From IMG/VR virus record IMGVR_UViG_3300006188_000008: a DNA stretch of 64,000 nt. One strand, given 5' to 3'. Both the position numbers and the translations under genes were made by a program. The notes under the pieces were generated by a model that was not told the origin of the DNA, did no database searches, and worked only from the letters and a program-made list of their open reading frames with translations. Origin of the DNA: a virus. Every line of letters begins with the position of its first letter. Position 1 is the first letter of the stretch. Below, one piece after another: positions 3,733 through 38,505 of this stretch.

Positions 3733-6255
3733 TTACCATCTATAACTTTCAATATTGAAATTTCTCATAATACGATCTCTAGCATACCAAGCCATCAGAA
3801 TAGAGGCAACACTGTCGGGCAAATGTTTTGCGCCATACGCTTGTTCATAAGTCAAATATTTTAATTCTTGTTCTAAGAATTTAATTCTTGGCATTTTAAT
3901 TTTCCTTTGCTGGACACAAGAAATAAATTTATTCATAAGATTTTCTAGAAGTTTCTTATTAGAGAAATTAATAGGGTAAGAATTATTTTGAACTATCTCT
4001 GAAACAATTTGGGACATACCTGTTGCATCATGGGCGGCGGGGCCTGGGAAATTAGAAAGAATTTCATCATATTTCTCTACCATTTTCTTAAGACCTGATT
4101 CTCGCTCAGGTCTATGCCAGTAACAAAGATAATCTACGCCTTCAGGATCAGAATTAGATCCAAACACAGAAAATACCGTCCAGTCGATTTTTACTCCCCA
4201 GTCGGCTCCTGTATAAAAGGAATCAATTTCTTTACTAGGAAATTTATCAGGATCCATAATTACTTCTTGCCCTGGAGCACCTTCATATACTCCAAGATCT
4301 GGATCCATCATCCATTCAATATCATTAAGATTAAATACAGTGTTTTCTGCTGCTGGTTCACCATTTTCAAACTGTCTACGCCAAACCTCAGGTGAAACCA
4401 TAGATTTCATGCGTTCCATTTGATCTACAGTTAGATACCCACCATTTTCAGCTAGAACGTCCTTGTAACAAAATTCATAAACAGGGGTGACTACTTTACC
4501 AGCAACTTTATTTGCTGCATTTGCTCTGTCAATAAATGCCGAAAGGGTTCCTCCTGAAGCATAGTGAGTTGAAGAAATTAAAATATTTTCTTTAACGAAG
4601 CCAATAGGATGAGCACAAGGAATTGCTCCGTCAATTAATTCAAGATCGCAAACGTCCGCCTCGTCGATTCTAAGTCTTGAAGGTCTTTGTCCATAAACTG
4701 AGGTTGGAGAGGCGGGGAGGCATTTAATGAGTCCCCCTGTCACAATACGAGAGGACTCCATCAATTCCGCCTTACGGTCTTGAAGAGCTTTAGGAGCATT
4801 TACGGAAGTCCAAAACATTCCTTGAGTTCGTGTATTGACTTGACTAATATATTCAAAGACTTTTCTAGATTGAGTTTGAGAACCTCCTAAAATTAATACT
4901 TCAGCATTCAAATTAATTTGTTCAGTTAACGCAAGAGCACCTACCAACACTGAATTATGTGTAACCACTAAATTATCTGTAAGGTAGGTTTGAGTTTGAC
5001 TATCTACAGTTATACATGAAGCTTGTTCATATTTTTCTAGATACTCAATACTTCTAATATTTCTTTTAATAGGATTACATTTTGGAGGTTGATATGCTTC
5101 AGCTTTTCTTTTTAATTTAAAGGGATTAAAATCTAATTTAATTCTTGTTTGATATTGAGGTAAATAAGTTTCTTTTTCTTTAGATTTATCTCTAATTCCA
5201 GTATAAGCTACGCCTCCCAGAGATTGTACAATAAATCTAACCGCCTCAGTTAAATGTTTAGAGGTTGAAACAAAACTAGCTCCTCTACTTTCTGACTTTA
5301 CTGCTGTTCCGTCTGTATCAAAAAGACCACGAAGTAATTCAAGTCTTTGATCAATAGAAGAAAATAAATATTGCTTAGGAACAAATTTAGTATCACACTT
5401 TAATCCATGCAGCCCTAATTCTTTAAGTTTATCTGTTAGAAAATTTCTAAAAACACTTCCTTCTCTATAATGTCCTACAAGTCTGTATTGAAAAGGAGCA
5501 TTATATTTTACTTCCATACCTTCTGGTAAGCAAGGAATGATGTTTTCAATAGTTTCATAATCATTAGGATGCGCTGATATGTTGGGAGTGCTTCCTACAA
5601 GACAACCGTCACCCAATAATACTCCTAATAGATAAGGATGGATAGGAAGATCTACTTCAGGAAATTCAATGGGCTTTACAATAGGAATTTGCCAATTTGA
5701 GGCATTATTTTTTCTTCTTAAATTTCCTACTAAATCTTTAGTAGCTTTTACTTGCCACTTATCTGTATGAAAATCTCTTTGAACTGTCCATAAATGATCT
5801 TCACAGCAATCTACATAGGTATGATCACCAAATTTTACTCTAACCATCTGCTTTAGGCCCTGAGGAAATACTCCAGTTACATTAACTGGTTTTCCGTCCA
5901 TATCAATTACTTGATCTCCAACTTTAATTTCTCCCATAGTTGTCCAACCTGTGGGTGTTAAAAGTTTAGAGGAATGACCAAGGGCTTTGCCTGTTCCCCG
6001 AGCACCTTTAAGAACAATTAAAGGATATCGAGCATAAAAAGCGTCACTAAAGACTTTAAAAGGAGGAGTGCAAGGTACAGATTTTTTAGCACACTCCGGG
6101 TGACATTTATCAGGAAAGGATATGTTCCAAAAAAATTTAAGATAATTCTTAAGTCTATGGTTTTCTTCTTCTTCTCTACCTGGGCCCAGGGGAAGAAGGG
6201 GCTTTTGCGCTAAAATACCCAATTGTTCTTCTCTAGATAGACTATCAAAGTCCAT
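3733..6255 (-). CDS. Terminase large subunit with intein
   Basis: Walker A GARGTGK|S, Walker B LRIDEAD, nuclease ADWG..D and HLPD acidic motifs. Confidence 0.85.
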   Translation of the reverse strand: MDFDSLSREEQLGILAQKPLLPLGPGREEEENHRLKNYLKFFWNISFPDKCHPECAKKSVPCTPPFKVFSDAFYARYPLIVLKGARGTGKALGHSSKLLTPTGWTTMGEIKVGDQVIDMDGKPVNVTGVFPQGLKQMVRVKFGDHTYVDCCEDHLWTVQRDFHTDKWQVKATKDLVGNLRRKNNASNWQIPIVKPIEFPEVDLPIHPYLLGVLLGDGCLVGSTPNISAHPNDYETIENIIPCLPEGMEVKYNAPFQYRLVGHYREGSVFRNFLTDKLKELGLHGLKCDTKFVPKQYLFSSIDQRLELLRGLFDTDGTAVKSESRGASFVSTSKHLTEAVRFIVQSLGGVAYTGIRDKSKEKETYLPQYQTRIKLDFNPFKLKRKAEAYQPPKCNPIKRNIRSIEYLEKYEQASCITVDSQTQTYLTDNLVVTHNSVLVGALALTEQINLNAEVLILGGSQTQSRKVFEYISQVNTRTQGMFWTSVNAPKALQDRKAELMESSRIVTGGLIKCLPASPTSVYGQRPSRLRIDEADVCDLELIDGAIPCAHPIGFVKENILISSTHYASGGTLSAFIDRANAANKVAGKVVTPVYEFCYKDVLAENGGYLTVDQMERMKSMVSPEVWRRQFENGEPAAENTVFNLNDIEWMMDPDLGVYEGAPGQEVIMDPDKFPSKEIDSFYTGADWGVKIDWTVFSVFGSNSDPEGVDYLCYWHRPERESGLKKMVEKYDEILSNFPGPAAHDATGMSQIVSEIVQNNSYPINFSNKKLLENLMNKFISCVQQRKIKMPRIKFLEQELKYLTYEQAYGAKHLPDSVASILMAWYARDRIMRNFNIESYRW
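4954..5985 (-). mobile_element. Intein (344 aa) with LAGLIDADG endonuclease, Ala1 / class 3-like
   Basis: Starts A after GTGK, ends THN before Ser; HLW block B, Cys in block F (ASCITV); LLGDG and LFDTDG motifs. Confidence 0.92.
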
Positions 6256-11610: not shown

Positions 11611-13191
11611 TTAAACTCTTTCTAAGGCTCCAGTTCCTTGACTAGCATATTTCATAATCTCTTTTTCAAAAGAAGTTTCTTTAAGCATACTCCAATTTCT
11701 AATAACTTCAAACATTCCATTATTAAATCCAGAGACATAGAGAACATCTGGATCTGTAGGAAGTTGAGTGTTAGAAGTTCCTTGAAGATCAATCATAACA
11801 AACTTAGCATTAGGATTATTTCTTTTAATATTTTTCCAAGCTGCGTGTGCTTCGGTAGATCTTCCGTAATTGATATATTGTTTATTGTTTTCATCATCTG
11901 AAAACATAACAAAATAATCTACCTTATGCTTAGCACCTTGAACTGATTGAAGACTAGAAGCAATAGAAGTGCTGCTTCCCGAAAATCCAATTCTATCTAC
12001 ATTAGTAACTAAACTGTCCATAGGATTTAAGTTGGAAGTAATTTCTCTTGCCGAAGAGTCAAAAGTATACACCTTTGAATTAGGATTTTTCTTTAAGAAA
12101 GCACAAGCCATTAAACTAGCTACTTGAAAACAAGTAAGCCTATGGTCTACTCCAGCTCTAGGAGCTTCAGTATTACCATTTACTTTTGCTCCCATTGAAC
12201 CGGAAACATCAATAGATAAAATTACATTTCCTTCCAAAGTTGGAACATTTCGCAAACTATAATCTAAGGCTTGCTGAAGTCCAATACGCATTCTTTGATT
12301 AGTTACGTTTAAATAACTAGTATAGATTTCATGAGGGAACAAATTAGCTTTTACAATTTCTTGCTCATTTGCTAATTTAGCTGCTAGTGTTTCAGCAACT
12401 TGCTGATTATTAAACACTCCCTTTTTCTCTAAATTGTTAATATTCTGACGCAACTGATTCCAAGTCATTTGTTGAGCAAAAATTTGCCATTGTTCCTCAG
12501 AAAGCTTCTCTCCTTTAATTCTTTCAAAAGGAACTCTTGGAATAGGTTGAGTAGTGTCCTTCAACCAATTGTAATAAGTTTGAATTTGCTCGGGCAGATC
12601 CTCAGAATGTTCTCCCTTTCTAATAAGCTTGTAAACAGCCTCTCGTTGCTTGTCTCCCTTGGGAGAGGGATGAGCCATAGCCATGACTGCCGACAAGCTA
12701 GGATTAGCTCCTATTGACTGATTCCATACATCAATAGGACGACGAGAAGAGAACCAAGATTGAATCAACTTACGACCAGCGTAATTTAAATTTTTACTTC
12801 CAAATTGGCCCGTTTGAATAGTTTTCAAAAACCGACGAATACTAGAACCATCGTCACAAACTTTAGGGAAAATCTGTTTCCAATAAGGAGATTTTCTCTG
12901 ACGTAGCAATGCCAGCAAGACAACGCACATATCTTTCATGTGTTGTTTCTTAGTATAAAGAGCACAGGCTGCTACAAATTCTTCAGAACACTCTGAAGAG
13001 AGTTTCTTAACAAGTTCCAATTGCTCAGTTGCCTGAGTATAATATTTGTTATCAAGAAAACCAACACAAATAAGTTTAGCTAAACTTTGCTCTGCGGTTT
13101 CTTTATAAGCAACTGCTCCACTATTGTTAATTTCCGTAGCCTGAGTTGTAGTCGAAGTTCTTTCAGTATAAAGGATACTACTTTTATTCAT
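11611..13191 (-). CDS. Ro60/Rsr-like TROVE + vWA RNA-binding protein
   Basis: N-terminal N.SGAVAY, helical TROVE region, RQNINNL, vWA MIDAS DVSGSM and FSDDE; 526 aa. Confidence 0.9.
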   Translation of the reverse strand: MNKSSILYTERTSTTTQATEINNSGAVAYKETAEQSLAKLICVGFLDNKYYTQATEQLELVKKLSSECSEEFVAACALYTKKQHMKDMCVVLLALLRQRKSPYWKQIFPKVCDDGSSIRRFLKTIQTGQFGSKNLNYAGRKLIQSWFSSRRPIDVWNQSIGANPSLSAVMAMAHPSPKGDKQREAVYKLIRKGEHSEDLPEQIQTYYNWLKDTTQPIPRVPFERIKGEKLSEEQWQIFAQQMTWNQLRQNINNLEKKGVFNNQQVAETLAAKLANEQEIVKANLFPHEIYTSYLNVTNQRMRIGLQQALDYSLRNVPTLEGNVILSIDVSGSMGAKVNGNTEAPRAGVDHRLTCFQVASLMACAFLKKNPNSKVYTFDSSAREITSNLNPMDSLVTNVDRIGFSGSSTSIASSLQSVQGAKHKVDYFVMFSDDENNKQYINYGRSTEAHAAWKNIKRNNPNAKFVMIDLQGTSNTQLPTDPDVLYVSGFNNGMFEVIRNWSMLKETSFEKEIMKYASQGTGALERV

Positions 13192-13195
13192 AAGT

Positions 13196-13591
13196 TTATT
13201 GCATGTCCTTTTTTAGTGTATTTATTAAAAACGTAATTATAGTATTGTTCAATGATGTAGGAGCCAGTGCGTTACATTTCCCTCTAAGTTGATTTACATA
13301 AGGCAACCCGCCTGGTTTTCGTAGCACTTCTGCAATATAAATTAATTTGACATTTAGGTCAAACAAGCCCACAATAGCTCTATTTTCTGTAGGAAAGTAA
13401 CCTTCATGACCTACAGCATTACGCATGTAACTGCCCCAAGATTTTTGTATTTCGGAATCAACCGATAAAACGGTTCTTAACCCCAAAGGCAAAACTAAAC
13501 TTAGAGCTTCAGTTCCCAACGTATCTATGCCTGTTAACGGTATATGTTTTTTATTTAAGCACAATGACCAATCTGGATTAATAAATTGCAT
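13196..13591 (-). CDS. Hypothetical protein
   Basis: ORF between clpB and TROVE, same operon. Confidence 0.6.
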   Translation of the reverse strand: MQFINPDWSLCLNKKHIPLTGIDTLGTEALSLVLPLGLRTVLSVDSEIQKSWGSYMRNAVGHEGYFPTENRAIVGLFDLNVKLIYIAEVLRKPGGLPYVNQLRGKCNALAPTSLNNTIITFLINTLKKDMQ

Positions 13592-15575
13592 TGTTATTCT
13601 CCACTAGTTTCTTATTGTAAGCATAATAGACTATTTCAGTTCCAGTCTTAGTTGAAACTAATTCTGCACAAATATAATCTATGTCATTAGCTTCAAGCAG
13701 TTTTTTACTTACAGGATCTTCAATTAGTCTAACTACATTACGTTTAATTAGACGAGCACCAAAACCAGATTCATCATCATCTTTATTAATTTCATCTCGT
13801 TTAGAGAGAATAAAATCAATAACCTCTGTAGGCAGTTCTAGTTGGATATTCATATCTGCAAGCTTAGAGATAACTTTCTTTACTTGCAAATGGAAAATCT
13901 GTCGTAGAGTTTCTTGAGTCAAAGCCTTGAATTTAATAATATCGCCAATACGATTAATAAACTCAGGTGGGAATCTTTGCTTCATAGTTTCAATAGTCAT
14001 GTTAGTAGTCATGATAATTACACAATTAGTAAAATTAACAGTTCTACCTTGACCATCAGTCAAACGTCCTTCGTCAAGAAGTTGAAGGAGAATTTTATAA
14101 ATATCCGTATGAGCTTTTTCAATTTCATCCATAAGAATTACTGAATAAGGCTTTCTACGAACAGCTTCAGTTAATTGACCACCAGCTTCGTAACCAACAT
14201 ATCCAGGTGGCGGCCCAGTAAGACGATTAACTTGATGCTTTTCAGCAAATTCAGACATGTCAAGACGAATAAGGAATTTTTCATCATCAAATAATTCCTT
14301 AGTCAAGGCTTTAGAAAGCTCAGTTTTTCCAGTTCCTGTTGGGCCCATAAACATAAAGCTTGCTTTAGGTTGTTTGGGATCAGCTAAACCTGTTCTAGAA
14401 CGTCTAACAGCATTAGAAACTTTAGTTACTGCTTCGTCTTGAGCAAGAACACTTTCAGAAAGCCTTGTTTCCATTGAAAGAAGAACTTGTTTCTCATCTT
14501 TCAAAAGACTAGTTACTGGAATTTTAGTCCAGAGAGTAATAATCTTGGCAATATCTTCTTCAGTCACTTCTAACTTAAAGAATTTATATTCAAGATTATT
14601 TACTTTCTCAAGCTGTCTTTTTAGTTCGGGAATGTCTTTATACTTAATTTCTGAAACTTCTTCTAAATCAAGATTTTCTTCTAAAGAAATTTCTAGTTCG
14701 GCAATTTCTGCTTGAATTTTAACTTTAGTTCTAAAACTACTAGCTTCGTTCTCCCAAATGAGTTTCTGTTCCTCAGTTAATTCGGCCGGTGGTTGATACA
14801 TTCTACTGGATTTTAAAGCAGCCATTGCTTCGTCAATAAGATCAATTGCCTTATCCGGCAAATTTCTTTCAGTGACATATCGTTCCGAAAGAACAGCTGC
14901 GGACTCTAGAGCTTTAGTTGTAATGTTGATTCCATGAAACTCTTCATATTTAGTTTTAATATGATTAAGAATTTTTATGGTTTCTTGAACGGTCGGCGGT
15001 TCGATAAACACAGGCTGGAAACGCCGTTCGAGTCCTGCATCTTTTTCAATATTTGCTTTATATTCCGAATAAGTAGTTGCTCCAATACAACTAAACTCGC
15101 CCCTAGCAAGAGCAGGCTTAAGTAAGTTAGCGGCATCCATAGATCCTTCCGTTTTACCTGAATTGCACATAGTATGAATTTCATCAATAAATACTAAAAC
15201 TTTTCCGTTAGAATTTCTAACTTGGTCTACAACCTGGTCTAGACGTTCTTCAAAGTCACCTTTATATTTAGCTCCGGCTAGAAGCTTACTAATTTGCAGG
15301 GAGTATAGTTCTACGTCTTTTAGCTGCTCTTGAACATTACCGTCTGCAATATCTTGAGCGAGTTTTTCAATGATAGAATTTTTACCAACGCCCGCATTTC
15401 CAATAAGAACGGGATTATTTTTACGACGGCGAGCTAGAATATTAGTAATTCTAAGAATTTCGTCTTCTCGACCCAAAACGGGATCTAGAAGTCCCTGTCG
15501 AGCTTTCTCTGTTAGGTTCGTGCCGAACCGTTCCAAAGGCGGGCGATCATCCGTGGGTTCAAAATCAACTTCCAT
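13578..15575 (-). CDS. clpB: ClpB-like Hsp100 ATPase lacking the N-terminal domain
   Basis: LDPVLGR..EI, NBD1 GNAGVGKN/FIDEIH, AGAKYKG pore loop, short coiled coil, NBD2 GPTGTGKT/MDEIEKAH, GYVGY; no IGF loop. Confidence 0.88.
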   Translation of the reverse strand: MEVDFEPTDDRPPLERFGTNLTEKARQGLLDPVLGREDEILRITNILARRRKNNPVLIGNAGVGKNSIIEKLAQDIADGNVQEQLKDVELYSLQISKLLAGAKYKGDFEERLDQVVDQVRNSNGKVLVFIDEIHTMCNSGKTEGSMDAANLLKPALARGEFSCIGATTYSEYKANIEKDAGLERRFQPVFIEPPTVQETIKILNHIKTKYEEFHGINITTKALESAAVLSERYVTERNLPDKAIDLIDEAMAALKSSRMYQPPAELTEEQKLIWENEASSFRTKVKIQAEIAELEISLEENLDLEEVSEIKYKDIPELKRQLEKVNNLEYKFFKLEVTEEDIAKIITLWTKIPVTSLLKDEKQVLLSMETRLSESVLAQDEAVTKVSNAVRRSRTGLADPKQPKASFMFMGPTGTGKTELSKALTKELFDDEKFLIRLDMSEFAEKHQVNRLTGPPPGYVGYEAGGQLTEAVRRKPYSVILMDEIEKAHTDIYKILLQLLDEGRLTDGQGRTVNFTNCVIIMTTNMTIETMKQRFPPEFINRIGDIIKFKALTQETLRQIFHLQVKKVISKLADMNIQLELPTEVIDFILSKRDEINKDDDESGFGARLIKRNVVRLIEDPVSKKLLEANDIDYICAELVSTKTGTEIVYYAYNKKLVENNNAIY

Positions 15576-17483: not shown

Positions 17484-17568
17484 TGGTAGGGAATGCCGGA
17501 CTCGAACCGGCACGGATTTCTCCACGAGGCCTTAAATCTCGGGTGTCTACCAATTTCACCAATTCCCC
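17484..17568 (-). tRNA. tRNA-Leu(TAA)
   Basis: GGGGAAT/ATTCCCT A CCA; D-loop GG; CGAGA-TTTAAGG-CCTCG; long variable arm; T-loop TTCGAGT. Confidence 0.92.
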
Positions 17569-17623
17569 ACGTATGTTTTGCCACAATATGTCTTAAGTAT
17601 TGCTTACTTACGTTATTTATTTT

Positions 17624-17776
17624 TTATAGTTTAGTTAAGATTTTTACATAACTTTTTACGTAACATTCGGAGTAATGTCCGGTTCTTTTAGACCAATATA
17701 TTCTATAATAATTACCTTTATTGTTCCAAATCATTATTCCAAGGACTGGAAATTTATAATCTTTTACTAAATACAC
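17624..17776 (-). CDS. Small protein (50 aa, GTG start, not in ORF track)
   Basis: MYLVKDY..LGIM...RIYWS...KL; resembles 17776-17961 and 18425-18610. Confidence 0.45.
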   Translation of the reverse strand: MYLVKDYKFPVLGIMIWNNKGNYYRIYWSKRTGHYSECYVKSYVKILTKL

Positions 17777-17961
17777 TATAACCTACAAATAAATTTTATA
17801 TTTTCTAACCAATTATAATATAACATAGAATAACCTCCATGGCTCCAATTAATAATACATTGATCTTCTTCATAATTTAATCTAGGCGTTAGTATTCCGT
17901 AACATTTAGTCAATTTAGACTGAACTAGCCAAACACTCATAGATAGTCCTCTTACTTGCAT
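17776..17961 (-). CDS. Small hypothetical protein
   Basis: VWLVQSK...GIL...INWS...RL. Confidence 0.5.
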   Translation of the reverse strand: MQVRGLSMSVWLVQSKLTKCYGILTPRLNYEEDQCIINWSHGGYSMLYYNWLENIKFICRL

Positions 17962-18114
17962 AGATTAAGGCAAACAAGACTAAGATGTCAAGACGATCAC
18001 TTGTATACTAGTATAGCTGTAGAAGCTCCTAAAGTTATTCCTACAAATAAAGCTATTAATATAAAAGTAAGAAAAACTTGAATTCCTCCATAATAAAGTT
18101 TTTCTACATAGTCT

Positions 18115-18417
18115 CTATCCATCTAATTTCCATCCATATTGAATATTGTCTTTTATATCAGGAATACAGTGAGTTTTCATGTGAAATAAGGCTTCTTGAT
18201 GAAGATCAATAAATTTTTCTAACCAATGTGAGGAGTAATGAGGAAATTTATAAGGGTGCCATACTTCGTCATCTTCTACTAAATATCTAATCAGTAAATG
18301 GTTGTCACTTTCTCTTTTCACCAAAACAACTGCATGACAAAACCCCTTAAAGACTTTATAAGTATTAGGATATATGTTTTCTGGATTACTATCTGGTATA
18401 AGATCTTTATCTAACAT
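18115..18417 (-). CDS. Hypothetical protein
   Basis: ORF in operon orientation. Confidence 0.55.
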   Translation of the reverse strand: MLDKDLIPDSNPENIYPNTYKVFKGFCHAVVLVKRESDNHLLIRYLVEDDEVWHPYKFPHYSSHWLEKFIDLHQEALFHMKTHCIPDIKDNIQYGWKLDG

Positions 18418-18424
18418 TTTATTC

Positions 18425-18610
18425 CTAAAGTTTAGCTTTTATATAATAGTAAACATGAATCCATCTTAAATAAGTCCATCCTGGGAAACATCTATCTGAA
18501 TAATATATAGTTCCACACTCTAAATTGTCATAATCAACTAAGTCTTGATTTTTATCTAAGACTAAAATAGCGAATAGATTCATATCAGTTTTACTTTGTA
18601 GTAAATACAA
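18425..18610 (-). CDS. Small hypothetical protein
   Basis: MYLLQSK...AIL...IYYS...KL. Confidence 0.5.
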   Translation of the reverse strand: MYLLQSKTDMNLFAILVLDKNQDLVDYDNLECGTIYYSDRCFPGWTYLRWIHVYYYIKAKL

Positions 18611-18786
18611 GGATTCCTCATGTTACGTCTAGAAGAAATTACATTTCTTTACATTAGATTTCTCTAATGTTTCTTGTTTGTTTTGTTTTTAACAATTAAG
18701 TATTAGTATAAGCCATTATTGTTTACTCACTTCTAGAAAGTGAACTAACATAATACACATTAAGAATGTTACTCCTAAATAAATAA

Positions 18787-19050
18787 TCATGATATATAAA
18801 TAACTTCTTTTATTTCTTGCAATTCTAGAGGAATGTTATCTGCGTCATATCGACTATCCCAACACAAATCCCATAAATTTCTAATAGAGTCTTTTTTACC
18901 TATAGCTCTGGTAGTTTTAACTACAATTTCATCTACTAAATAAATCTGATCTTCGTTATTAGACTCCATATCATCAGGAATAACTACAGGTAAGTTGGGC
19001 ATAGATAAAAGTTTAAATGCCAACTCATGAGCTTTAATGTATTTAAGCAT
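18787..19050 (-). CDS. Hypothetical protein
   Basis: AHELAFKLLSMPNLPV, a phage-type small protein. Confidence 0.55.
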   Translation of the reverse strand: MLKYIKAHELAFKLLSMPNLPVVIPDDMESNNEDQIYLVDEIVVKTTRAIGKKDSIRNLWDLCWDSRYDADNIPLELQEIKEVIYIS

Positions 19051-19233
19051 TTTATTCTTTCACAAAATAAAAGAAAGAGACTCCGTAAAGAGTCTCTTAT
19101 AATTTAGAATAATGTAGTTCCGATTAGAACTACTAAGCATCCGAGCATTACACTAGCAAATTGCTGCTCTCCTTTGATAATAAAGGCTAAGCACAATAGT
19201 CCTACAGTTAGGATAGTAATGTTGGGATTTTGT

Positions 19234-19563
19234 TTAACCATCTTTCTTCGTCAATTTACTACGAAGTAGATCTCCACTAGAACCTTCTAGAAGACTATTG
19301 TCAATAATGATAGAGTGACCATTCTTACTATCGTAGAAAACAATATTTCCTTGACGATCCTCCAAAATTTGATTCACATGAATAGTTACCTTAGACATAG
19401 TTTCATTCTCCTTAGTGTTTATTAACATACCAGTTAAAATTTGATTAAGATCACAAAAACATTCAATACCTCTGGATCTTTTATCTGAATCACATTCACA
19501 GATATAATTCAAATTATACTCCCGTCCAGTTCCAGCGAACTGCTCCCTTACGAAAGTGACCAT
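19234..19563 (-). CDS. Hypothetical protein (true start likely later, MSKVT)
   Basis: ORF in operon orientation. Confidence 0.45.
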   Translation of the reverse strand: MVTFVREQFAGTGREYNLNYICECDSDKRSRGIECFCDLNQILTGMLINTKENETMSKVTIHVNQILEDRQGNIVFYDSKNGHSIIIDNSLLEGSSGDLLRSKLTKKDG

Positions 19564-19786
19564 CTACCCACTGTTCCTTACCTTGTGTTCGTGTAAGGCC
19601 ATAGGAGCCACATACAAAGCTGTCTCCGCTCATGCGACATCTAGCTCGAATCTCGCTCTCAAGCTTATCAGTTTGTTCTTGAATAGGTTTTAGAAGGTTC
19701 TCATATACGAGAGCATCTTGCTTAAGTTTACGCAGTTGCTCAAATTTTTGATGAAGATCAGTGTCTACTCCAATTTGGACAGTCAT
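19514..19786 (-). CDS. Small coiled-coil protein
   Basis: Heptad-rich N half, beta-rich C half. Confidence 0.55.
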   Translation of the reverse strand: MTVQIGVDTDLHQKFEQLRKLKQDALVYENLLKPIQEQTDKLESEIRARCRMSGDSFVCGSYGLTRTQGKEQWVDGHFRKGAVRWNWTGV

Positions 19787-19986
19787 AGTCTATTAATACC
19801 TCTATCTCTATAAATATCCCAGAACATGGTTGTTGCTGCCACATAACAAAGTTCGTTATGTCCAGTTAATCTTAACTGATACGAACAATAAAGTAGACCT
19901 AAAAGAGGTAACCCTTTTTCTAAAAGATAGAATAAAATATTTACATATTTATTGTCCATAAAAAGTTTTGGCATAATCCTTTTCAT
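19783..19986 (-). CDS. Small membrane protein
   Basis: Hydrophobic stretches; ATGA overlap. Confidence 0.5.
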   Translation of the reverse strand: MKRIMPKLFMDNKYVNILFYLLEKGLPLLGLLYCSYQLRLTGHNELCYVAATTMFWDIYRDRGINRL

Positions 19987-20368
19987 AAACTAAAGTTATA
20001 TACCCAAACAATCTACCAAGATGGAATAATCCATTAAAAATAAATAAAAAAGTAATAGAAAACCAAGAATTATTTAATAAAGTTCCAATTCCTATAAATA
20101 AATGGGAAATTATTCCATACATAAAAAACACCCATAAATGAGCATCTGTAAAAGCTTTTTCAAAGCCTTCAAGATTTTTACTAAACTTAGGATTTAAAGA
20201 AAAAGCCTTTAACATCTCCCATAGGCCTAATTTTTTTAGGATCCAAATTGGGAAGTAGAAAATTTTACGTAAAGTTAGTCGTTTAGACTTATCGTCTTTT
20301 AGATACATGTTATTAATACAGGCTTCCTCATAGAAATTTAAACCCATAAGTCCCTTTCTAACATACAA
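19949..20368 (-). CDS. Membrane protein
   Basis: Two hydrophobic segments in the C half. Confidence 0.55.
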   Translation of the reverse strand: MYVRKGLMGLNFYEEACINNMYLKDDKSKRLTLRKIFYFPIWILKKLGLWEMLKAFSLNPKFSKNLEGFEKAFTDAHLWVFFMYGIISHLFIGIGTLLNNSWFSITFLFIFNGLFHLGRLFGYITLVYEKDYAKTFYGQ

Positions 20369-20801
20369 TTAATTTTCTCTTATACAAAGAAGATTCTCTA
20401 TCTCGATAAGTTATAACTCCAGTTCGTAAACAACCTTGCCAATAAACAAACCAAGTATCTTTTCTTAATTCTTTCCAAATTAGAAGAGTATGGTCAATTT
20501 TAGAGGTTATCCAAAACTTTTGGGAATTTCTAATAATTACCGAAGTCCTACCTTTTTTATGGTTTGTTTTTATAGCTTTAAATTGTTCTTCAGTGACAAT
20601 TAAACTCTCTGAGTCATAATAACTTAATCCCTTTAAGCCAACATAAGCTTCAGAAGCTTTTAAGTAAGAATTTGAAGGTGCCGATAAATCTAAAGTATAT
20701 AATTTCATTTTAGCCTTAAAAGAAAAAAAGACTAAGTTATTAACTATACTTTTATAAAAGTAATCGAAGAGGAAAGGGAGGTAGGAAGGGAAACTCTTCA
20801 A
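20358..20801 (-). CDS. Hypothetical protein (true start likely MKLYTL)
   Basis: ORF in operon orientation. Confidence 0.5.
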   Translation of the reverse strand: MKSFPSYLPFLFDYFYKSIVNNLVFFSFKAKMKLYTLDLSAPSNSYLKASEAYVGLKGLSYYDSESLIVTEEQFKAIKTNHKKGRTSVIIRNSQKFWITSKIDHTLLIWKELRKDTWFVYWQGCLRTGVITYRDRESSLYKRKLIVC

Positions 20802-20875
20802 TTATATTTTAAAGTAAACACAACTTAATCTTTTAGAAATTCAAGTGAACGACCAGGATATCACTTAAATTGTTT

Positions 20876-20952
20876 TGGTGGGAAGAGAATCTTGGCGAGA
20901 CCCGACTTCGGAGTTTTCAATTCCGCGCTCTAACCGTCTGAGCTATCTTCCC
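20876..20952 (-). tRNA. tRNA-Phe(GAA)-like, aberrant T-loop
   Basis: GGGAAGA/TCTTCCC A CCA; CGGAA-TTGAAAA-CTCCG; T-loop TCGCCAA. Confidence 0.8.
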
Positions 20953-20962
20953 ATGTAGCCTT

Positions 20963-21126
20963 AGATTTAAATAGAAATTTGTTAAAAGTGATAACACATT
21001 TTTTACTAGCGCGTTTACCATTCCGCCACTCGTCTATATAGACGAGGCAGGACTTGAACCTGCAAATCTTTCGATACTAATTCCTCATAGAATGTATTGT
21101 TATCTAAACACAAACTTCTAAAACCT
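20963..21126 (-). ncRNA. Circularly permuted tRNA mimic A (YrlA-like, Leu-type body)
   Basis: 5' stems, TACATTC, ATTAG, variable arm, GCAGG-TTCAAGT-CCTGC, acceptor closed by ATAT loop, D-arm GCG-GAATGGTAAA-CGC, CTAGT, complementary 3' stems. Confidence 0.85.
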
Positions 21127-21167
21127 GCAAATTATCGAAACGCTACTAACGATAATTTTAATTAAAA

Positions 21168-21255
21168 AGAGAATTCAACAAACACGAACGGATCAGGATC
21201 GACTAGGAAGGGACGCCAACAAACAAAAGGAGACAAAACACTTGTTGAATTCTCT
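21168..21255 (-). ncRNA. Hairpin RNA with 14-bp stem and 60-nt pyrimidine-rich loop
   Basis: AGAGAATTCAACAA/TTGTTGAATTCTCT starting 1 nt after a tRNA CCA, followed by a T tract. Confidence 0.55.
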
Positions 21256-21256
21256 A

Positions 21257-21333
21257 TGGTGGAGCAGGCTACTTGCCGAGTAGCGACCTCTGCGTTTTCA
21301 ATGCAACGTTCTAAACATCTGAACTACCGCTCC
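21257..21333 (-). tRNA. tRNA-Phe(GAA)-like, aberrant D- and T-loops
   Basis: GGAGCGG/CTGCTCC A CCA; TTGCA-TTGAAAA-CGCAG; D-loop lacks GG; T-loop TCGGCAA. Confidence 0.78.
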
Positions 21334-21931
21334 ATATATTAGATCTATAAAATTCTTTTAACCAAAATCCCTTAGGCTTGAGTTCTATTTGAAATTTTTT
21401 TGCTTTATTAGCAATAGTTTTATCTGAACATCCAAAAATTTTTGCAATTTTTGTTAACGGTAATTTTTCTATAAGATCTTTTAATTCTTCTTTACTTATA
21501 TCAAATTTAGAATGTTTAGGTAAAGATAGAAAGCACTTTTTACACAGTGTAGAATTAGGGTCTTTTACAAATTCATTGCATATATTACATTTTTTTGTAA
21601 TAAAAACACCCTGAATAGTGTAAACACCTTCCTCAGTTAAAGATCTATCTTTCTTTAGACAAGATTTTTTCTTAAGATTTTTTCCTCCAAAAGTTTCAGT
21701 TTGGCTGTGACAATTTTTGCAAAGAAATCTAAGATTTGACAACTCATTATTTCCAGGACATCCGTCAATATGATCTAGATCTAGAGACAAAGGTTTGCCT
21801 TGCCAATAAGGTTCTTGATTACATATTTGACAAACGTAAGGAATTAAGTTTTCTTCTAAAATAATTTTACGATAAAGAGAAGATCTTATACGTTTATTAG
21901 TATCTTTTTCTCTTATAAAGATATTAGTCAT
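21311..21931 (-). CDS. HNH endonuclease with C-terminal HTH (homing-type)
   Basis: CQIC...LDLDHIDG..GNN..SNLRFLCKNCH; C-terminal LTKIAKIFGCSDKTI. Confidence 0.85.
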   Translation of the reverse strand: MTNIFIREKDTNKRIRSSLYRKIILEENLIPYVCQICNQEPYWQGKPLSLDLDHIDGCPGNNELSNLRFLCKNCHSQTETFGGKNLKKKSCLKKDRSLTEEGVYTIQGVFITKKCNICNEFVKDPNSTLCKKCFLSLPKHSKFDISKEELKDLIEKLPLTKIAKIFGCSDKTIANKAKKFQIELKPKGFWLKEFYRSNIWSGSSDV

Positions 21932-22025
21932 AATAACCCTAGTATTATGACTATATAAAAAAGAAACCTTTTCTGTTAAAAAATCCTACCTAAAAAATTA
22001 TTCGGGACACAGATAATTTCTTTAA

Positions 22026-22101
22026 TGGTGGAATCTGACAACAATCACATTTGCCGATCTGAGTTTTTCACGCCCATGCTTTATTACTAAGCTAAGATTC
22101 C
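22026..22101 (-). tRNA. tRNA-Phe(GAA)-like, strongly degenerate T-arm
   Basis: GGAATCT/AGATTCC A CCA; TGGGC-GTGAAAA-ACTCA; no D-loop GG; no TTC loop. Confidence 0.65.
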
Positions 22102-22106
22102 ATAAC

Positions 22107-22183
22107 TGGTGGGAGAAAGTGGAATTACACGCACTGACCTCCGAGGGTTCAATTCGGCGCTCTGACTACTGAGCTATTCTCCC
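22107..22183 (-). tRNA. tRNA-Phe(GAA)-like, aberrant D- and T-loops
   Basis: GGGAGAA/TTCTCCC A CCA; CCGAA-TTGAACC-CTCGG; T-arm AGTG-CGTGTAATTC-CACT. Confidence 0.75.
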
Positions 22184-22256
22184 AGGAGGCTTCAATCGTC
22201 GCTTAAGGAGGAAATTATTCTCTGCCCGAAAGTCTGATCAAAACCTTGTATAACTT

Positions 22257-22375
22257 TTAAACTTGCTGAACAATTTTCAAAATTAAACTAATAACTAAAA
22301 CAGCTAAGAATAATTTCAAAAGAAGTTGACCAGCACAATAGCTACTATGAAGAATATTACTGCCCAATGAAGCAT
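22257..22375 (-). pseudogene. Frameshifted DUF1328/UPF0391-like small membrane protein remnant
   Basis: Frame 1 MLHWAVIFFIVAI; second frame AGQLLLKLFLAVLVISLI; central GFGG segment missing. Family recognised from memory. Confidence 0.45.
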
Positions 22376-22476
22376 TATTGGTTAACTACAACGCGTTCAA
22401 CCCAACGCAATACTTCCACAAAAACTTTAGCTCCAGTAAGAGCTGCTTTCAATCCAAGCCAAACAACAGTTTTCAT
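22375..22476 (-). CDS. 33-aa amphipathic small protein
   Basis: GGAG RBS; MKTVVWLGLKAALTGAKVFVEVLRWVERVVVNQ. Confidence 0.45.
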   Translation of the reverse strand: MKTVVWLGLKAALTGAKVFVEVLRWVERVVVNQ

Positions 22477-22477
22477 T

Positions 22478-22696
22478 TTACTCCTTATAACTCGCAGTAG
22501 TGACATTAAATACAGGTCCTGTCATGCCTACAGAACACATAGAGTCTTCTAGTTCACCTTCTAGAACTAATTCATAACCTTCTACTTGAAGATTTTCATT
22601 CAATCCTTCCAAAGTAAACATTTGGCCTTCTTCGGTTTTTAGGACAAGATGTCCACCTTCAAGGTCATTCTTTTCTAAAGTTCCGGTAAGAGTCAT
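22478..22696 (-). CDS. Small beta-barrel/OB-like protein (possibly DUF5818-like)
   Basis: GTLEKNDLEGGHLVL...LEGEL...C..G. Confidence 0.55.
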   Translation of the reverse strand: MTLTGTLEKNDLEGGHLVLKTEEGQMFTLEGLNENLQVEGYELVLEGELEDSMCSVGMTGPVFNVTTASYKE

Positions 22697-22722
22697 AATT
22701 TTTCTCTTTTCAAAATAATAAG

Positions 22723-22851
22723 CCCGTTAAAATCTTCTAAATAATCGTGGGACAGATGCTCTATCCATTGAGCTACTATAGAATTTCTTCATATAGACAG
22801 GAATTGAACCTGTAACTTTCTGTGGGAATGTAGATTATTTAATAACACGGG
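22723..22851 (-). ncRNA. Circularly permuted tRNA mimic B (YrlA-like, Arg-type body)
   Basis: CCCGT and AAATAAT stems, TACATTC, ACAGA, ACAGG-TTCAATT-CCTGT, acceptor closed by GAAA loop, GCTC-AATGGATA-GAGC, TCTGT, complementary 3' stems. Confidence 0.85.
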
Positions 22852-22856
22852 TTTGT

Positions 22857-22935
22857 TGGTGGAGCAAACTACCTCGGTAAGTAGTGTCCTTCGGGTTTTC
22901 AATCCGACGCTCTTGGACCACTGAGCTATCGCTCC
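22857..22935 (-). tRNA. tRNA-Phe(GAA)-like, aberrant 8-nt T-loop
   Basis: GGAGCGA/TTGCTCC A CCA; TCGGA-TTGAAAA-CCCGA; ACTAC-TTACCGAG-GTAGT. Confidence 0.78.
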
Positions 22936-22941
22936 ATATAA

Positions 22942-23099
22942 AAGAATTTAATACTTAAAGATTATCCAAATTATTTGACTTCAGCCTCTCGTCCACAGAC
23001 TCTTCGTTTATTTCTAAACTGATTAGCCCGGAGGGATTCGAACCCCCGTTTCTCGTAAAAGAAAGAATGTATTTTGGAAGTAGACACTATTAAATTCTT
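22942..23099 (-). ncRNA. Circularly permuted tRNA mimic C (YrlA-like, Glu-type body)
   Basis: 12-bp outer stem AAGAATTTAATA, TCCAAA/TTTGGA, TACATTC, GGGGG-TTCGAAT-CCCTC, extended acceptor closed by GAAA, GAC-GAGAGGCTGAA-GTC. Confidence 0.8.
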
Positions 23100-23101
23100 A
23101 T

Positions 23102-23177
23102 TGGTGCCCAAAGCCGGTTCTACCCACGGCCACCCCTACGGTTTCAATGTAGTGCTCTACTACTGAGCTATTTGGGC
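23102..23177 (-). tRNA. tRNA-Phe(GAA)-like, aberrant D- and T-loops
   Basis: GCCCAAA/TTTGGGC A CCA; CTACA-TTGAAAC-CGTAG; GCCG-TGGGTAGAAC-CGGC. Confidence 0.75.
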
Positions 23178-23185
23178 ATAAATTG

Positions 23186-23251
23186 CCTAAGTTAACTTTT
23201 AAATTCATTAACTTAGGACTTAACTACATAGTTTTTAAATTCACTATGTAG
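23186..23251 (-). repeat. Two tandem hairpins with the same TGAATTTAAAA loop
   Basis: CTACATAGT-GAATTTAAAA-ACTATGTAG and CCTAAGTTAA-TGAATTTAAAAG-TTAACTTAGG. Confidence 0.7.
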
Positions 23252-23274
23252 AATTGAAGTGAATAACCACGTTC

Positions 23275-23350
23275 TGGTGGGAAAGGATGGGATTGAACCA
23301 CCGACCTGCTCTTTTTCACGGAGCCGCTCTAGTCTCTGAGCTACCTTCCC
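23275..23350 (-). tRNA. tRNA-Phe(GAA), canonical T-loop but no D-loop GG
   Basis: GGGAAGG/CTTTCCC A CCA; GCTCC-GTGAAAA-AGAGC; T-loop TTCAATC. Confidence 0.85.
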
Positions 23351-35958: not shown

Positions 35959-38505
35959 ATGTATAATAGAGAGTTTGAATTAGACCTTATATCTTATTGT
36001 CTAAATAAACCTTATTATCTAAAACAACATAAAGAAAGATTAGAATCTTTAAAATTCTCAGACAAATATCTTAATCTTGTTTATAAAGAATTGTTTAAAG
36101 TTTTGGATAGCTATAAAACTATCCCTACTAAAACTGAATTTCAAAAGATTTTAAATGATTCTATGTCTAAGAATGAACGATTTAATGATTTTGAAAAAGA
36201 AGCTGTTCAAGAAATTATCACTTCTATTTATGATAGATATGTCACAAGTCTTACTGGTGTTTCTATTAGTAATTATCTTATTAAAGAAGAAACTGCTAAG
36301 ATTAGTGAAGAGTTAATTAATCTTCAAGCTCAAGATCTTTTAGACCAAATTGGAAGTTATGAAAGAAGATTGTCTAAACTTCGTCATTTTCTTTCAGACG
36401 ATGAAGATCTAGGCCTCAATATGTTCTCTGATCAAGGAATTGCTAAAGCTAAAAATCTTTTAGCAGAGTATAATATTGAAGCTTGTATTCCAACTGGTTA
36501 TGAAATTTGGGATAGACAACTTCAAGGTGGACTGCGTAAAGGTGAATTGTTCGTAGTAATGGCCAGCACAGGTGTTGGTAAGGCCCAGCCCTTAAATGCT
36601 AAAATTGTAACTCCCGAAGGAATGAAAACTATGGGAGATATGAAAGTCGGATCTGAGGTTATAGATTGGGACGGTAATGTTGTTAAAGTAAAAGGCGTAT
36701 TCCCCCAGGGAGAAAAAGATATTTATAAAGTTACGTTTTCAGACGGAACTTCTACTGAATGTTGCGATGAACATCTTTGGTGGGTAAGACATTATTCTAA
36801 TACCAAAAAAGATGAATGGACGGTTTTACCTTTAAAATCGTTTAAAAATAAATTGACTTCAGGTCAAGGCAGAAAAGATTGGCAAATTCCTAACGTAAAA
36901 CCCATCAACCTACCTGAAAAAACTTACATTATACATCCGTATGTTCTTGGAGCTATTTTGGGTGACGGTTCAATAACTGGAAATAATGTAGGATTTACTT
37001 GTGCCGATCCTGAATTGGTAGAAAATTTAAGAGCCCTTATTCCAGAACAAATAGAGTTGGTAAAACACAATACAAAAGCAGATATAGATTACCAATTTTC
37101 TAAAAGAAATGATCGTAGACATCCTCATGTTAAAAATGTTTATTTAGAAGAACTTAGACGTTTAAATTTAATGGGCTGTAATTTTCACACTAAATTTATC
37201 CCAGAAGAGTATCTTTGGGGATCTTTAGAACAAAGACAAGCTTTACTTCAAGGTCTTATGGATACAGATGGACATTTAAGTGCAAGTAAAAGTGGAATTG
37301 ACTATATCTCTGCTTCTTTAAATCTGGTTACTTCTGTAAAACAGTTAGCCCTATCTTTAGGTGGAAATGTTGGAGAAATTAAAACTAAAATTGTAGAAGG
37401 TAAAACTTATTACAGATTATTTTTTAATATTCCAATTTGTCCCTTTAAGTTGTCTAGAAAAGCTGAAAATTGGAATCCTAGAACTCACTATGGTTACAAA
37501 AGAATTATAGACAAAGTAGAATTTGTTAGAAAAGATCAAGCGCAATGTATCAGGGTAGATTCTCCTACCAGCAGTTATCTAACCGACGATTTTATTTTAA
37601 CTCATAATACGGCGTTTCTGTTAAATATGGCTGCAAATATGGTAAATCAAGATTATCGTGTAGTTTATGTGGCTATGGACAATGTAGAAGGCGAATTAAT
37701 TGCTAGAACTGTCGGCTGTCTTATGGACAGAGATATCACACAAAAACTTGATCCTAATGCAGCCTTTGATGACGTTTCTGATAAGTATACCAAACATTAC
37801 ACTAATAATTTTATTATTAAGCATTTTGCTCCAAGAGAACTTACTAAGTCCAAACTTGAAAGATATTTAGATAGATTAGAAATTTATCTTTATGATTTAG
37901 ATAAAAAGGCTGGTAAACCTGAAGATAAATGTGGTAAAATTGATGTTTTAGTTTTAGATTATTTAGAATGCATGCTTCCAGAATCAGGAGCCGGTGAATT
38001 CTGGATTGCTGCGGAACATCTTGCCCAAGAAGTAAAAGCAGTTCTTAAGACTAGAGATATTCTAGGATTAACTGCTACTCAAGGTGGAACCGAGGCTATG
38101 AAATCGGACACTTTAAAACTTCACATGGCACAGGGCGCTAAGAGTCGATTTAACGCTCCTGATTTGGTGTTTGGTGTTTCTCAAAATGAAGACGAAAAGA
38201 AAGCTAGACCTGCTAGTAAATTTCGTCTTAGTTGTCTTAAAGCTAGACGAGCTAAAACGAATTATGAAATTGCATTTGTTTTCTATAAGGAGAAACAAGT
38301 TATTAAGGAAGATCCTGTATATTCAGATGTTTTAGGAGTTTCTACTACAACAAATTCAGGACCGCCCACAAATGAAGACGGAACTGAAGTAGCTATGAGA
38401 AACAATTTTAATCGCCAATCTAGCTTTCAAATTAAAGACCCTGTAGACAAAGTAATTGGTGAGTTAAGTAAAACATTAGAGGGTATAGAATCCTTAACTA
38501 GCTAA
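35959..38505 (+). CDS. DnaB-like replicative helicase with intein
   Basis: GGLRKGEL..V.ASTGVGK|T, LDYLE, TATQ, ARR motifs. Confidence 0.9.
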   Translation: MYNREFELDLISYCLNKPYYLKQHKERLESLKFSDKYLNLVYKELFKVLDSYKTIPTKTEFQKILNDSMSKNERFNDFEKEAVQEIITSIYDRYVTSLTGVSISNYLIKEETAKISEELINLQAQDLLDQIGSYERRLSKLRHFLSDDEDLGLNMFSDQGIAKAKNLLAEYNIEACIPTGYEIWDRQLQGGLRKGELFVVMASTGVGKAQPLNAKIVTPEGMKTMGDMKVGSEVIDWDGNVVKVKGVFPQGEKDIYKVTFSDGTSTECCDEHLWWVRHYSNTKKDEWTVLPLKSFKNKLTSGQGRKDWQIPNVKPINLPEKTYIIHPYVLGAILGDGSITGNNVGFTCADPELVENLRALIPEQIELVKHNTKADIDYQFSKRNDRRHPHVKNVYLEELRRLNLMGCNFHTKFIPEEYLWGSLEQRQALLQGLMDTDGHLSASKSGIDYISASLNLVTSVKQLALSLGGNVGEIKTKIVEGKTYYRLFFNIPICPFKLSRKAENWNPRTHYGYKRIIDKVEFVRKDQAQCIRVDSPTSSYLTDDFILTHNTAFLLNMAANMVNQDYRVVYVAMDNVEGELIARTVGCLMDRDITQKLDPNAAFDDVSDKYTKHYTNNFIIKHFAPRELTKSKLERYLDRLEIYLYDLDKKAGKPEDKCGKIDVLVLDYLECMLPESGAGEFWIAAEHLAQEVKAVLKTRDILGLTATQGGTEAMKSDTLKLHMAQGAKSRFNAPDLVFGVSQNEDEKKARPASKFRLSCLKARRAKTNYEIAFVFYKEKQVIKEDPVYSDVLGVSTTTNSGPPTNEDGTEVAMRNNFNRQSSFQIKDPVDKVIGELSKTLEGIESLTS
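36583..37608 (+). mobile_element. Intein (342 aa) with LAGLIDADG endonuclease, Ala1 / class 3-like
   Basis: Starts A after GVGK, ends THN before Thr; HLW, AQCIRV, ILGDG, LMDTDG. Confidence 0.92.

Follow-up and report, generated by a model that had tools for sequence, protein, structure and literature searches.

The stretch analysed here, which we call the window, is 64,000 nucleotides of DNA from the virus record IMGVR_UViG_3300006188_000008. It is the minus strand of positions 76203-140202 in a 145,021-bp IMG/VR phage genome with direct terminal repeats and a G+C content of 33.5%. Between window positions 17,484 and 23,350 lie eight tRNA-type genes, all on the minus strand: a tRNA-Leu(UAA) and, 3.3 kb away from it with small open reading frames (ORFs) in between, an array of seven genes with the anticodon GAA, referred to below as W1 to W7. 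In all eight, the pair 31-39 that should close the anticodon loop is missing.

ARAGORN calls two of the eight genes, the tRNA-Leu(UAA) at 17484-17568 and the tRNA-Phe(GAA) at 23275-23350. Upon searching with Infernal and the Rfam tRNA model (RF00005), all eight minus-strand genes were obtained, and the innermost anticodon-stem pair was flagged as non-standard in each of them. Seven reach the gathering score of 29 bits (40.5-52.4 bits); the remaining gene scores 28.5 bits. Scores are also given for R1, a covariance model of our own built on 13 array RNAs, those of this phage and of its nearest relative (the sister phage described below). The genes are the following:

W1, 23275-23350, minus strand: tRNA-Phe(GAA)-like, called by ARAGORN; Rfam tRNA 52.4 bits, R1 75.8 bits; C31.A39 at 23320 and 23312, a pair flagged as non-standard by the Rfam alignment; loop GUGAAAA; T loop canonical, D loop without GG, CCA encoded.
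W2, 23102-23177, minus strand: GAA tRNA-like, not called by ARAGORN; Rfam 43.0 bits, R1 64.7 bits; A31.C39 at 23148 and 23140; loop UUGAAAC; T arm irregular, D loop without GG.
W3, 22857-22935, minus strand: GAA tRNA-like; Rfam 46.7 bits; A31.C39 at 22903 and 22895; loop UUGAAAA; T loop of 8 nucleotides, non-canonical.
W4, 22107-22183, minus strand: GAA tRNA-like; Rfam 42.4 bits; orthologue of Rd in the sister phage by alignment; A31.C39 at 22153 and 22145; loop UUGAACC, position 37 being a pyrimidine (C37); T arm irregular.
W5, 22026-22101, minus strand: GAA tRNA-like, the weakest member; Rfam 28.5 bits (below the gathering score), R1 60.2 bits; C31.A39 at 22072 and 22064; loop GUGAAAA.
W6, 21257-21333, minus strand: GAA tRNA-like; Rfam 41.0 bits; orthologue of Ra in the sister phage by alignment; A31.C39 at 21302 and 21294; T loop UCGGCAA, kept in Ra with a compensatory stem change.
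W7, 20876-20952, minus strand: GAA tRNA-like; Rfam 40.5 bits, R1 80.7 bits; A31.C39 at 20921 and 20913; loop UUGAAAA; T loop short, non-canonical.
tRNA-Leu(UAA), 17484-17568, minus strand: canonical type-II tRNA, called by ARAGORN; Rfam 43.6 bits; A31.C39 at 17537 and 17529; loop UUUAAGG; D and T loops normal.

For the anticodon arms, both the Infernal alignments and the sequence itself were consulted, and each 17-nucleotide stem-loop was re-located uniquely by script. The state of 31-39 is A31.C39 in six genes and C31.A39 in two, both of which carry G32; positions 37-38 are AA in five genes and AC, CC and GG in one each. Both patterns had been described in the initial annotation and are reproduced here. 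Across the eight genes, pairs 27-43 to 30-40 comprise 30 Watson-Crick and two G.U pairs out of 32, with three to four pair types at each position, which shows these stems to be genuine and preserved through compensatory substitutions. In the minimum-free-energy folds, the anticodon arm consists of 4 bp and a loop of 9 nucleotides in every case in which the cloverleaf is optimal. The nominal loop has 7 nucleotides and reaches 9 when the unpaired 31 and 39 are counted, and the effective 9-nucleotide loop proposed earlier is thus sound as a structural description. The stems had also been considered otherwise unrelated. This is correct only in part, as the genes have D arms and acceptor ends in common. 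Despite the turnover in the rest of the stem, positions 31 and 39 of the GAA genes carry A or C in all 14 instances, a strictness that argues against simple drift.

As background, ARAGORN was run on 119 IMG/VR loci with tRNA clusters, which provided 849 unique non-Phe tRNAs. Pair 31-39 is mismatched in 41 of them (4.8%) and is A.C or C.A in 23 (2.7%). A.C accounts for more of these natural mismatches than any other type (22 of 41), and the highest mismatch load of any background locus is 4 of 23 tRNAs. When 8/8 is compared with 41/849 in a Fisher test, p = 6e-11 is obtained, which bears out the earlier judgement that such sharing is unlikely to be due to chance, with the qualification that seven of the eight genes are paralogues and that the eight cases therefore amount to about three independent events, one for A.C in the family, one for its flipped form C.A and one for the tRNA-Leu. 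Phage tRNA-Leu(UAA) genes of the background (n=22) have A-U at 31-39 in 20 cases, G-C in one and A.C in one. When IMG/VR was scanned with tRNA-Phe patterns, the A31/C39 version was found in 3 contigs and the A31/U39 version in at least 119. The A31..C39 tRNA-Phe pattern was also run against 185,579 species genomes and gave 32 matching stretches, nearly all of them truncated integration-site halves; about two to three are intact (Sulfidibacter, a Paceibacteria metagenome-assembled genome and perhaps one more), making it unlikely that the host routinely carries A31.C39 in its tRNA-Phe. Of the 33 tRNAs of the Paceibacteria genome, 3 have a 31-39 mismatch.

The mismatch had been suggested to be a genome-wide signature. 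This does not hold: the tRNA-Arg(UCU) and the Ile-UAU-type tRNA that lie outside the window, at genome 40278-40447, have G31-C39 and C31-G39, respectively. As both are Watson-Crick paired, the trait is local to one unusual RNA family and one tRNA. The Ile-UAU-type gene (genome 40355-40447, plus strand, beside the tRNA-Arg(UCU)) has a variable region of about 22 nucleotides, and such a long variable arm is unusual for a tRNA-Ile.

We also looked at related phages. Homologues of the family-A DNA polymerase (PolA) define a small clade, all of whose known members are metagenome contigs. In the nearest relative (L158 = L199), whose PolA is 78% identical, six GAA RNAs, named Ra to Rf, form an orthologous array at the syntenic position, and individual T arms are retained through compensating substitutions. 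At 31-39, Ra and Rb have A.C, Rc and Rf have G.U and Rd has C.C, the stem of Re being broken; Rb, Rc and Rf have 6-nucleotide GUGAAA loops. Either through a 6-nucleotide loop closed by G.U or A.C, or through a C.C mismatch, the sister loops present 8-9 bases that are weakly paired or unpaired. An intact stem, a 7-nucleotide loop and a Watson-Crick 31-39 pair occur together in none of the 13 array RNAs of the two phages. In the ordinary tRNAs of the clade no mismatch was found at 31-39 in ten genes (8 Watson-Crick, 2 U.G wobble). These ten are the Met, Phe, Ala and Leu-UAA tRNAs of L155, Ala and Met of L157, Ile, Glu and Met of L162, and Leu-UAA of L199; the pair is A-U in the L155 tRNA-Phe, G-C in its tRNA-Leu(UAA) and U-A in that of L199. 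More distant relatives have no array at the corresponding position, and Myxococcus phage Mx1, which provides the best match to the Ro60 protein described below, carries an ordinary set of 31 tRNAs, 3 of them mismatched. Searches of IMG/VR with the AAA protein or with the PolA profile gave no close relatives, and two pattern scans of metagenome contigs gave no orthologues of the array. The mismatch is real, strongly non-random and kept in kind across two phages. From the comparison of the two arrays, the conserved feature is therefore a weak or absent loop-closing pair and an enlarged loop of 8-9 nucleotides around an invariant UGAA; A/C identity at 31 and 39 is strict in the phage of the window.

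By alignment, the seven GAA genes share G1, U8-A9, the D stem, U33-G34-A35-A36, A73 and an encoded CCA. The PheRS-type identity set contained therein (G34, A35, A36, A73 and CCA) is invariant or nearly so in the 13 array RNAs of both phages. The two parts of the elbow, G18G19 and a T loop of the T54-Psi55-C56 type, occur together only in the tRNA-Leu; T loops are non-canonical in six of the seven GAA genes (W2-W7), and G18G19 is missing in five. All eight genes depart from the canonical tRNA in having 31-39 unpaired, and W4 in lacking purine 37 as well. Rfam scores of the GAA genes are 28-52 bits, compared with 59-67 bits for the regular Arg and Ile-type tRNAs of the genome. The seven genes represent diverged paralogues within one tRNA-Phe(GAA)-like family whose elbows are non-canonical, and its members are unlikely to be standard decoders. 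Nor do the seven genes appear to be decaying, because the acceptor, the D stem, the CCA and the individual T arms are conserved between the two phages. Scanning with R1 gave no extra members in the window or in the sister locus.

A canonical tRNA-Phe with A31.C39 was identified in another phage (L003:93-169; IMGVR_UViG_3300046616_000314, 561 kb). It is identical to W3 along about 25 nucleotides that cover the 3' strand of the D stem, the anticodon arm and the start of the variable loop. The same 561-kb phage also has a normal A31-U39 tRNA-Phe (L042).

A search for enzymes that might act on the array RNAs detected a class II PheRS-type core at genome 9606-10238. It belongs to the following gene:

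SrmL, genome 9441-10595 (= L204:4442-5596), plus strand, outside the window: single-chain PheRS-like protein of 384 amino acids; equivalog of NCBIfam NF051887 ('PheS-related mystery ligase SrmL'), 370 bits (cut-off 300).

SrmL aligns with the mitochondrial monomeric PheRS into the C-terminal anticodon-binding region. The family has more than 500 homologues, most of them with an FDX-ACB domain, and in 22 SrmL homologues the residues of motifs 2 and 3 do not vary. Upstream of the gene is an ORF with a BCS1_N domain and downstream a 332-amino-acid ORF without family match. Huge phages have SrmL within tRNA arrays, close to tRNA-Phe(GAA): in L215, tRNA-Phe(GAA) genes are located 213 nucleotides upstream and 166 nucleotides downstream of SrmL; in L216, a tRNA-Phe lies about 120 nucleotides upstream with a tRNA-Val in between; and in L213, a 508-kb phage, two tRNA-Phe and a 'GGAA' tRNA are about 8 kb from SrmL. 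The latter tRNA (L213:1832-1906), beside the two tRNA-Phe genes, has an 8-nucleotide anticodon loop and is assigned the anticodon 'ggaa' by ARAGORN. Duplicate tRNA-Phe genes in SrmL phages were considered as evidence and discarded as uninformative, because huge phages duplicate many tRNAs. An R1 scan near SrmL in five other phages did not detect hidden elbow-less GAA RNAs. The phage genome gave no match to an L/F-transferase (PF03588) or a CCA-adding enzyme. The closest SrmL homologue, 65% identical, is on L217, a 1.9-kb Logan contig from another sample; it gives the recorded protein only when TAG is read as Gln, which suggests a stop-codon-recoded relative.

The coding content of the window includes ribonucleotide reductase, family-A DNA polymerase, a helicase and SbcCD, among others. 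Of interest for the array are a Ro60 gene about 8 kb away from it and permuted, YrlA-like tRNA mimics, with the order T arm, acceptor hairpin and D arm, that alternate with the GAA genes:

11611-13191, minus strand: Ro60/TROVE protein with a vWA_Ro60 domain; 31% identity to the Myxococcus phage Mx1 protein.
13578-15575, minus strand: ClpB-like ATPase with two AAA domains, adjoining the Ro60/TROVE gene.
22728-22836 and 20985-21088, minus strand: permuted YrlA-like elements; sub-threshold Rfam YrlA matches of 29 and 26.6 bits.
L158:2261-2372, minus strand: permuted element of the sister phage; Rfam YrlA 51.4 bits.

The gene pair of Ro60/TROVE protein and ClpB-like ATPase is kept in the sister phage (L199). 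A YrlA or Y RNA-like identity (RF02553) was considered for the eight genes themselves and rejected: their order is linear, with an anticodon arm, and the permuted elements are separate neighbours. Within the array, a small ORF with a single weak homologue is found. A 206-amino-acid ORF located there (21311-21931, minus strand) displays an HNH-like Cys/His motif by eye, has no Pfam match, and overlaps at its 3' end the 5' end of W6 by about 23 nucleotides. Elsewhere in the window, two large proteins (3733-6255, minus strand, and 35959-38505, plus strand) have a common segment of about 250-350 amino acids that matches the same PHROGs, and the phage helicase is about 340 amino acids longer than the DnaB of relatives (about 500 amino acids). 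The common segment and the extra length look like inserted intein or homing-endonuclease domains; inteins are also present in PolA relatives.

How can a family of RNAs without the 31-39 pair be explained? The reading that we favour, tentatively and at somewhat less than even chance, is that the missing pair is a selected structural trait of phage-specific RNAs derived from tRNA-Phe, which would be partners of SrmL. These RNAs have kept the acceptor stem with A73 and the encoded CCA, a D stem of the tRNA-Phe type and U33-G34-A35-A36, and have lost the canonical D-loop/T-loop elbow. With A and C at 31-39, a wobble-type pair could form at best, and the resulting 4-bp stem would present UGAA in an enlarged, flexible loop of 9 nucleotides. 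Rather than ordinary decoders, the GAA RNAs might be dedicated substrates or ligands of the monomeric SrmL of the phage, the open loop-closing position adapting or marking the anticodon arm for this protein. An arm opened in this way would also be a poor match for those host factors that read a tRNA-Phe arm of the usual form, for instance anticodon nucleases, MiaA or TruA, and perhaps for the ribosome. That A31.C39 can alter the presentation of the anticodon, along with charging and stability, is known from experiments on the yeast mutant sup70-65 (PMC3664417). As to the tRNA-Leu(UAA), its mismatch may be a single chance case, given a background of about 3-5%, or may respond to the same host factor. 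A more specific proposal, which we consider unlikely, is that the GAA RNAs and SrmL constitute a phage-borne aminoacylation pair orthogonal to the host, with the open 31-39 and the enlarged UGAA loop as the mark that distinguishes these RNAs from host tRNA-Phe. If true, they would be the first candidate substrates for the uncharacterised SrmL family, and a non-standard use of charged RNA would be implied, either recoding or aminoacyl transfer off the ribosome.

Several observations weigh against a partnership with SrmL. The gene is about 107 kb from the array in the phage genome, with no adjacency. The SrmL-linked tRNA-Phe of huge phages have A-U, A-U, G.U, G-C, C-G, G.U, A-U and U-A at 31-39, and no A.C; being paired or G.U, they indicate that the mismatch is not a general SrmL requirement. 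Conversely, an intact tRNA-Phe with A31.C39 was found in three other genomes (the 561-kb phage, the Paceibacteria genome and Sulfidibacter), none of which has SrmL above the family cut-off. A simple rule by which SrmL goes with A31.C39 tRNA-Phe was discarded on both of these counts, and the mismatch is at most a lineage-specific adaptation of the array RNAs. The tRNA-Leu is not naturally covered by an SrmL partnership. Lastly, identical DNA was found in 13 public runs that contain the full sequence, all of them DNA from bioreactor or wastewater metagenomes and perhaps the samples of origin, and no RNA run carrying this phage DNA was among the public runs listed. The link between SrmL and the array RNAs is circumstantial.

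The proposed use of unusual tRNAs together with a dedicated synthetase has parallels. As in the huge phages, an SrmL equivalog occurs here with extra GAA tRNA-type genes, and SrmL has the same single-chain build as the mitochondrial PheRS, an enzyme that serves elbow-poor tRNAs. However, the huge phages have adjacent canonical tRNAs with a paired or G.U 31-39, whereas in the phage of the window the partners would be 107 kb apart and the seven RNAs are non-canonical and mismatched. In Streptomyces, ProRSx and tRNA-ProA represent a dedicated synthetase with an odd tRNA. Here too an extra synthetase paralogue co-occurs with unusual tRNAs. Natural phage tRNAs with A31.C39 (22 of 849, and the L003 tRNA-Phe, whose 17-nucleotide anticodon arm is identical to that of W3) have the same mismatch; they are otherwise canonical and sporadic, with no more than 4 of 23 per locus, in contrast to 8 of 8 in the cluster.

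Evasion of defence, or a decoy function, was also considered: a host nuclease or toxin directed to the anticodon arms of tRNA-Phe and tRNA-Leu(UAA) would be escaped, or soaked up, by copies with an opened pair. This is unlikely in our view, even though phage tRNAs are known to neutralise tRNA-cleaving defences, and a trait present in two unrelated tRNA bodies (Phe-like and Leu) and absent from those of Arg and Ile is what would be expected for a nuclease of limited specificity. In addition, TTT and TTA rank among the most used codons of the phage. Conversely, the tRNA-Leu of the nearest relative is Watson-Crick paired at 31-39, and six of the seven GAA RNAs appear unfit for translation, so that escape would be of little help to them. 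No RtcB or RNA ligase genes for repair were detected in the phage genome. The precedent invoked in the initial annotation, escape through changes in the anticodon stem-loop, stands in part. The published precedent describes phage tRNA anticodon-loop variants against nucleases at loop positions and does not mention stems (van den Berg et al., 2023; PMC10264068), but the stem is covered by T5 tRNA-Lys and PARIS AriB, where one anticodon-stem pair can decide nuclease recognition (PMC11464382). The window genes resemble such nuclease-resistant tRNAs in that the anticodon arm of a phage-encoded tRNA departs from its usual form. They differ in that the stem pair is swapped yet paired there and abolished here, and in that the carriers in the window are mostly non-standard tRNAs. 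Inheritance with relaxed constraint has a still lower probability. An ancestral A31.C39 would have spread by duplication, 31 and 39 would now be loop bases in decaying pseudo-tRNAs, and the tRNA-Leu would be mismatched by chance. The paralogy of the seven genes, the prevalence of A.C among natural mismatches and the canonical tRNA-Phe with an identical arm in L003 are in agreement with it, and a single extra case in the tRNA-Leu has a prior probability of about 3-5%. Nevertheless, the other stem positions have been fully turned over with compensation while 31 and 39 stayed A or C; the flipped C.A of two genes needs two substitutions; free drift to seven A.C or C.A pairs would have, by our own calculation, a probability of about (2/16)^7; and the conservation between the two phages that speaks against decay applies here as well.

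Two further explanations were considered. In the first of them, which is very unlikely, the widened loop would allow the GAA RNAs and the tRNA-Leu to favour, at U-rich sites, a shift of the frame or the reading of four bases (UUUN). Expanded anticodon loops are a classic feature of frameshift suppressors, the sister array has effective loops of 8 nucleotides, and the 'GGAA' tRNA with an 8-nucleotide loop belongs to an SrmL-bearing huge phage. Decoding is also relaxed by A31.C39 in yeast: in tRNA-Gln(CUG) of the sup70-65 mutant, the change G31A creates A31.C39, distorts anticodon presentation, relaxes first-position wobble, and lowers stability and charging (PMC3664417). Mismatch and position are those of six of the window genes, yet sup70-65 is a mutation of a single tRNA, deleterious and of laboratory or spontaneous origin, as opposed to a natural trait conserved in a family. 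The non-canonical elbows, the C37 of one gene and the 6-nucleotide loops of the sister array speak against use on the ribosome, and when slippery sites of the -1 type with extended frames were looked for, only 14 generic candidates were obtained, none of them tied to UUU-UUA. The second explanation, RNA editing, is the least probable of all those considered and hardly to be expected. A C-to-U or A-to-I deamination at 31 or 39 would restore the pair after transcription. A.C is the sole mismatch that a single deamination can repair, every case in the window involves A and C, and one deaminase activity would presumably mend both orientations. No PF00383 (CMP/dCMP/TadA-type) deaminase domain was found in the phage genome, however, and the G.U and C.C at 31-39 of the sister array would be left unexplained.

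The geometry of the anticodon loop is determined by pair 31-39, and tRNAs in which this pair does not form are rare. A family of RNAs that holds this position open through the turnover of its sequence implies that something besides normal decoding reads these arms. The co-occurrence of SrmL, a widespread PheRS-like enzyme, permits a direct experiment, in which the action of SrmL on the array RNAs and the role of the open pair are determined. If the trait instead protects against a host nuclease, phage tRNA counter-defence would extend from changes of loop bases to the deliberate opening of the stem.

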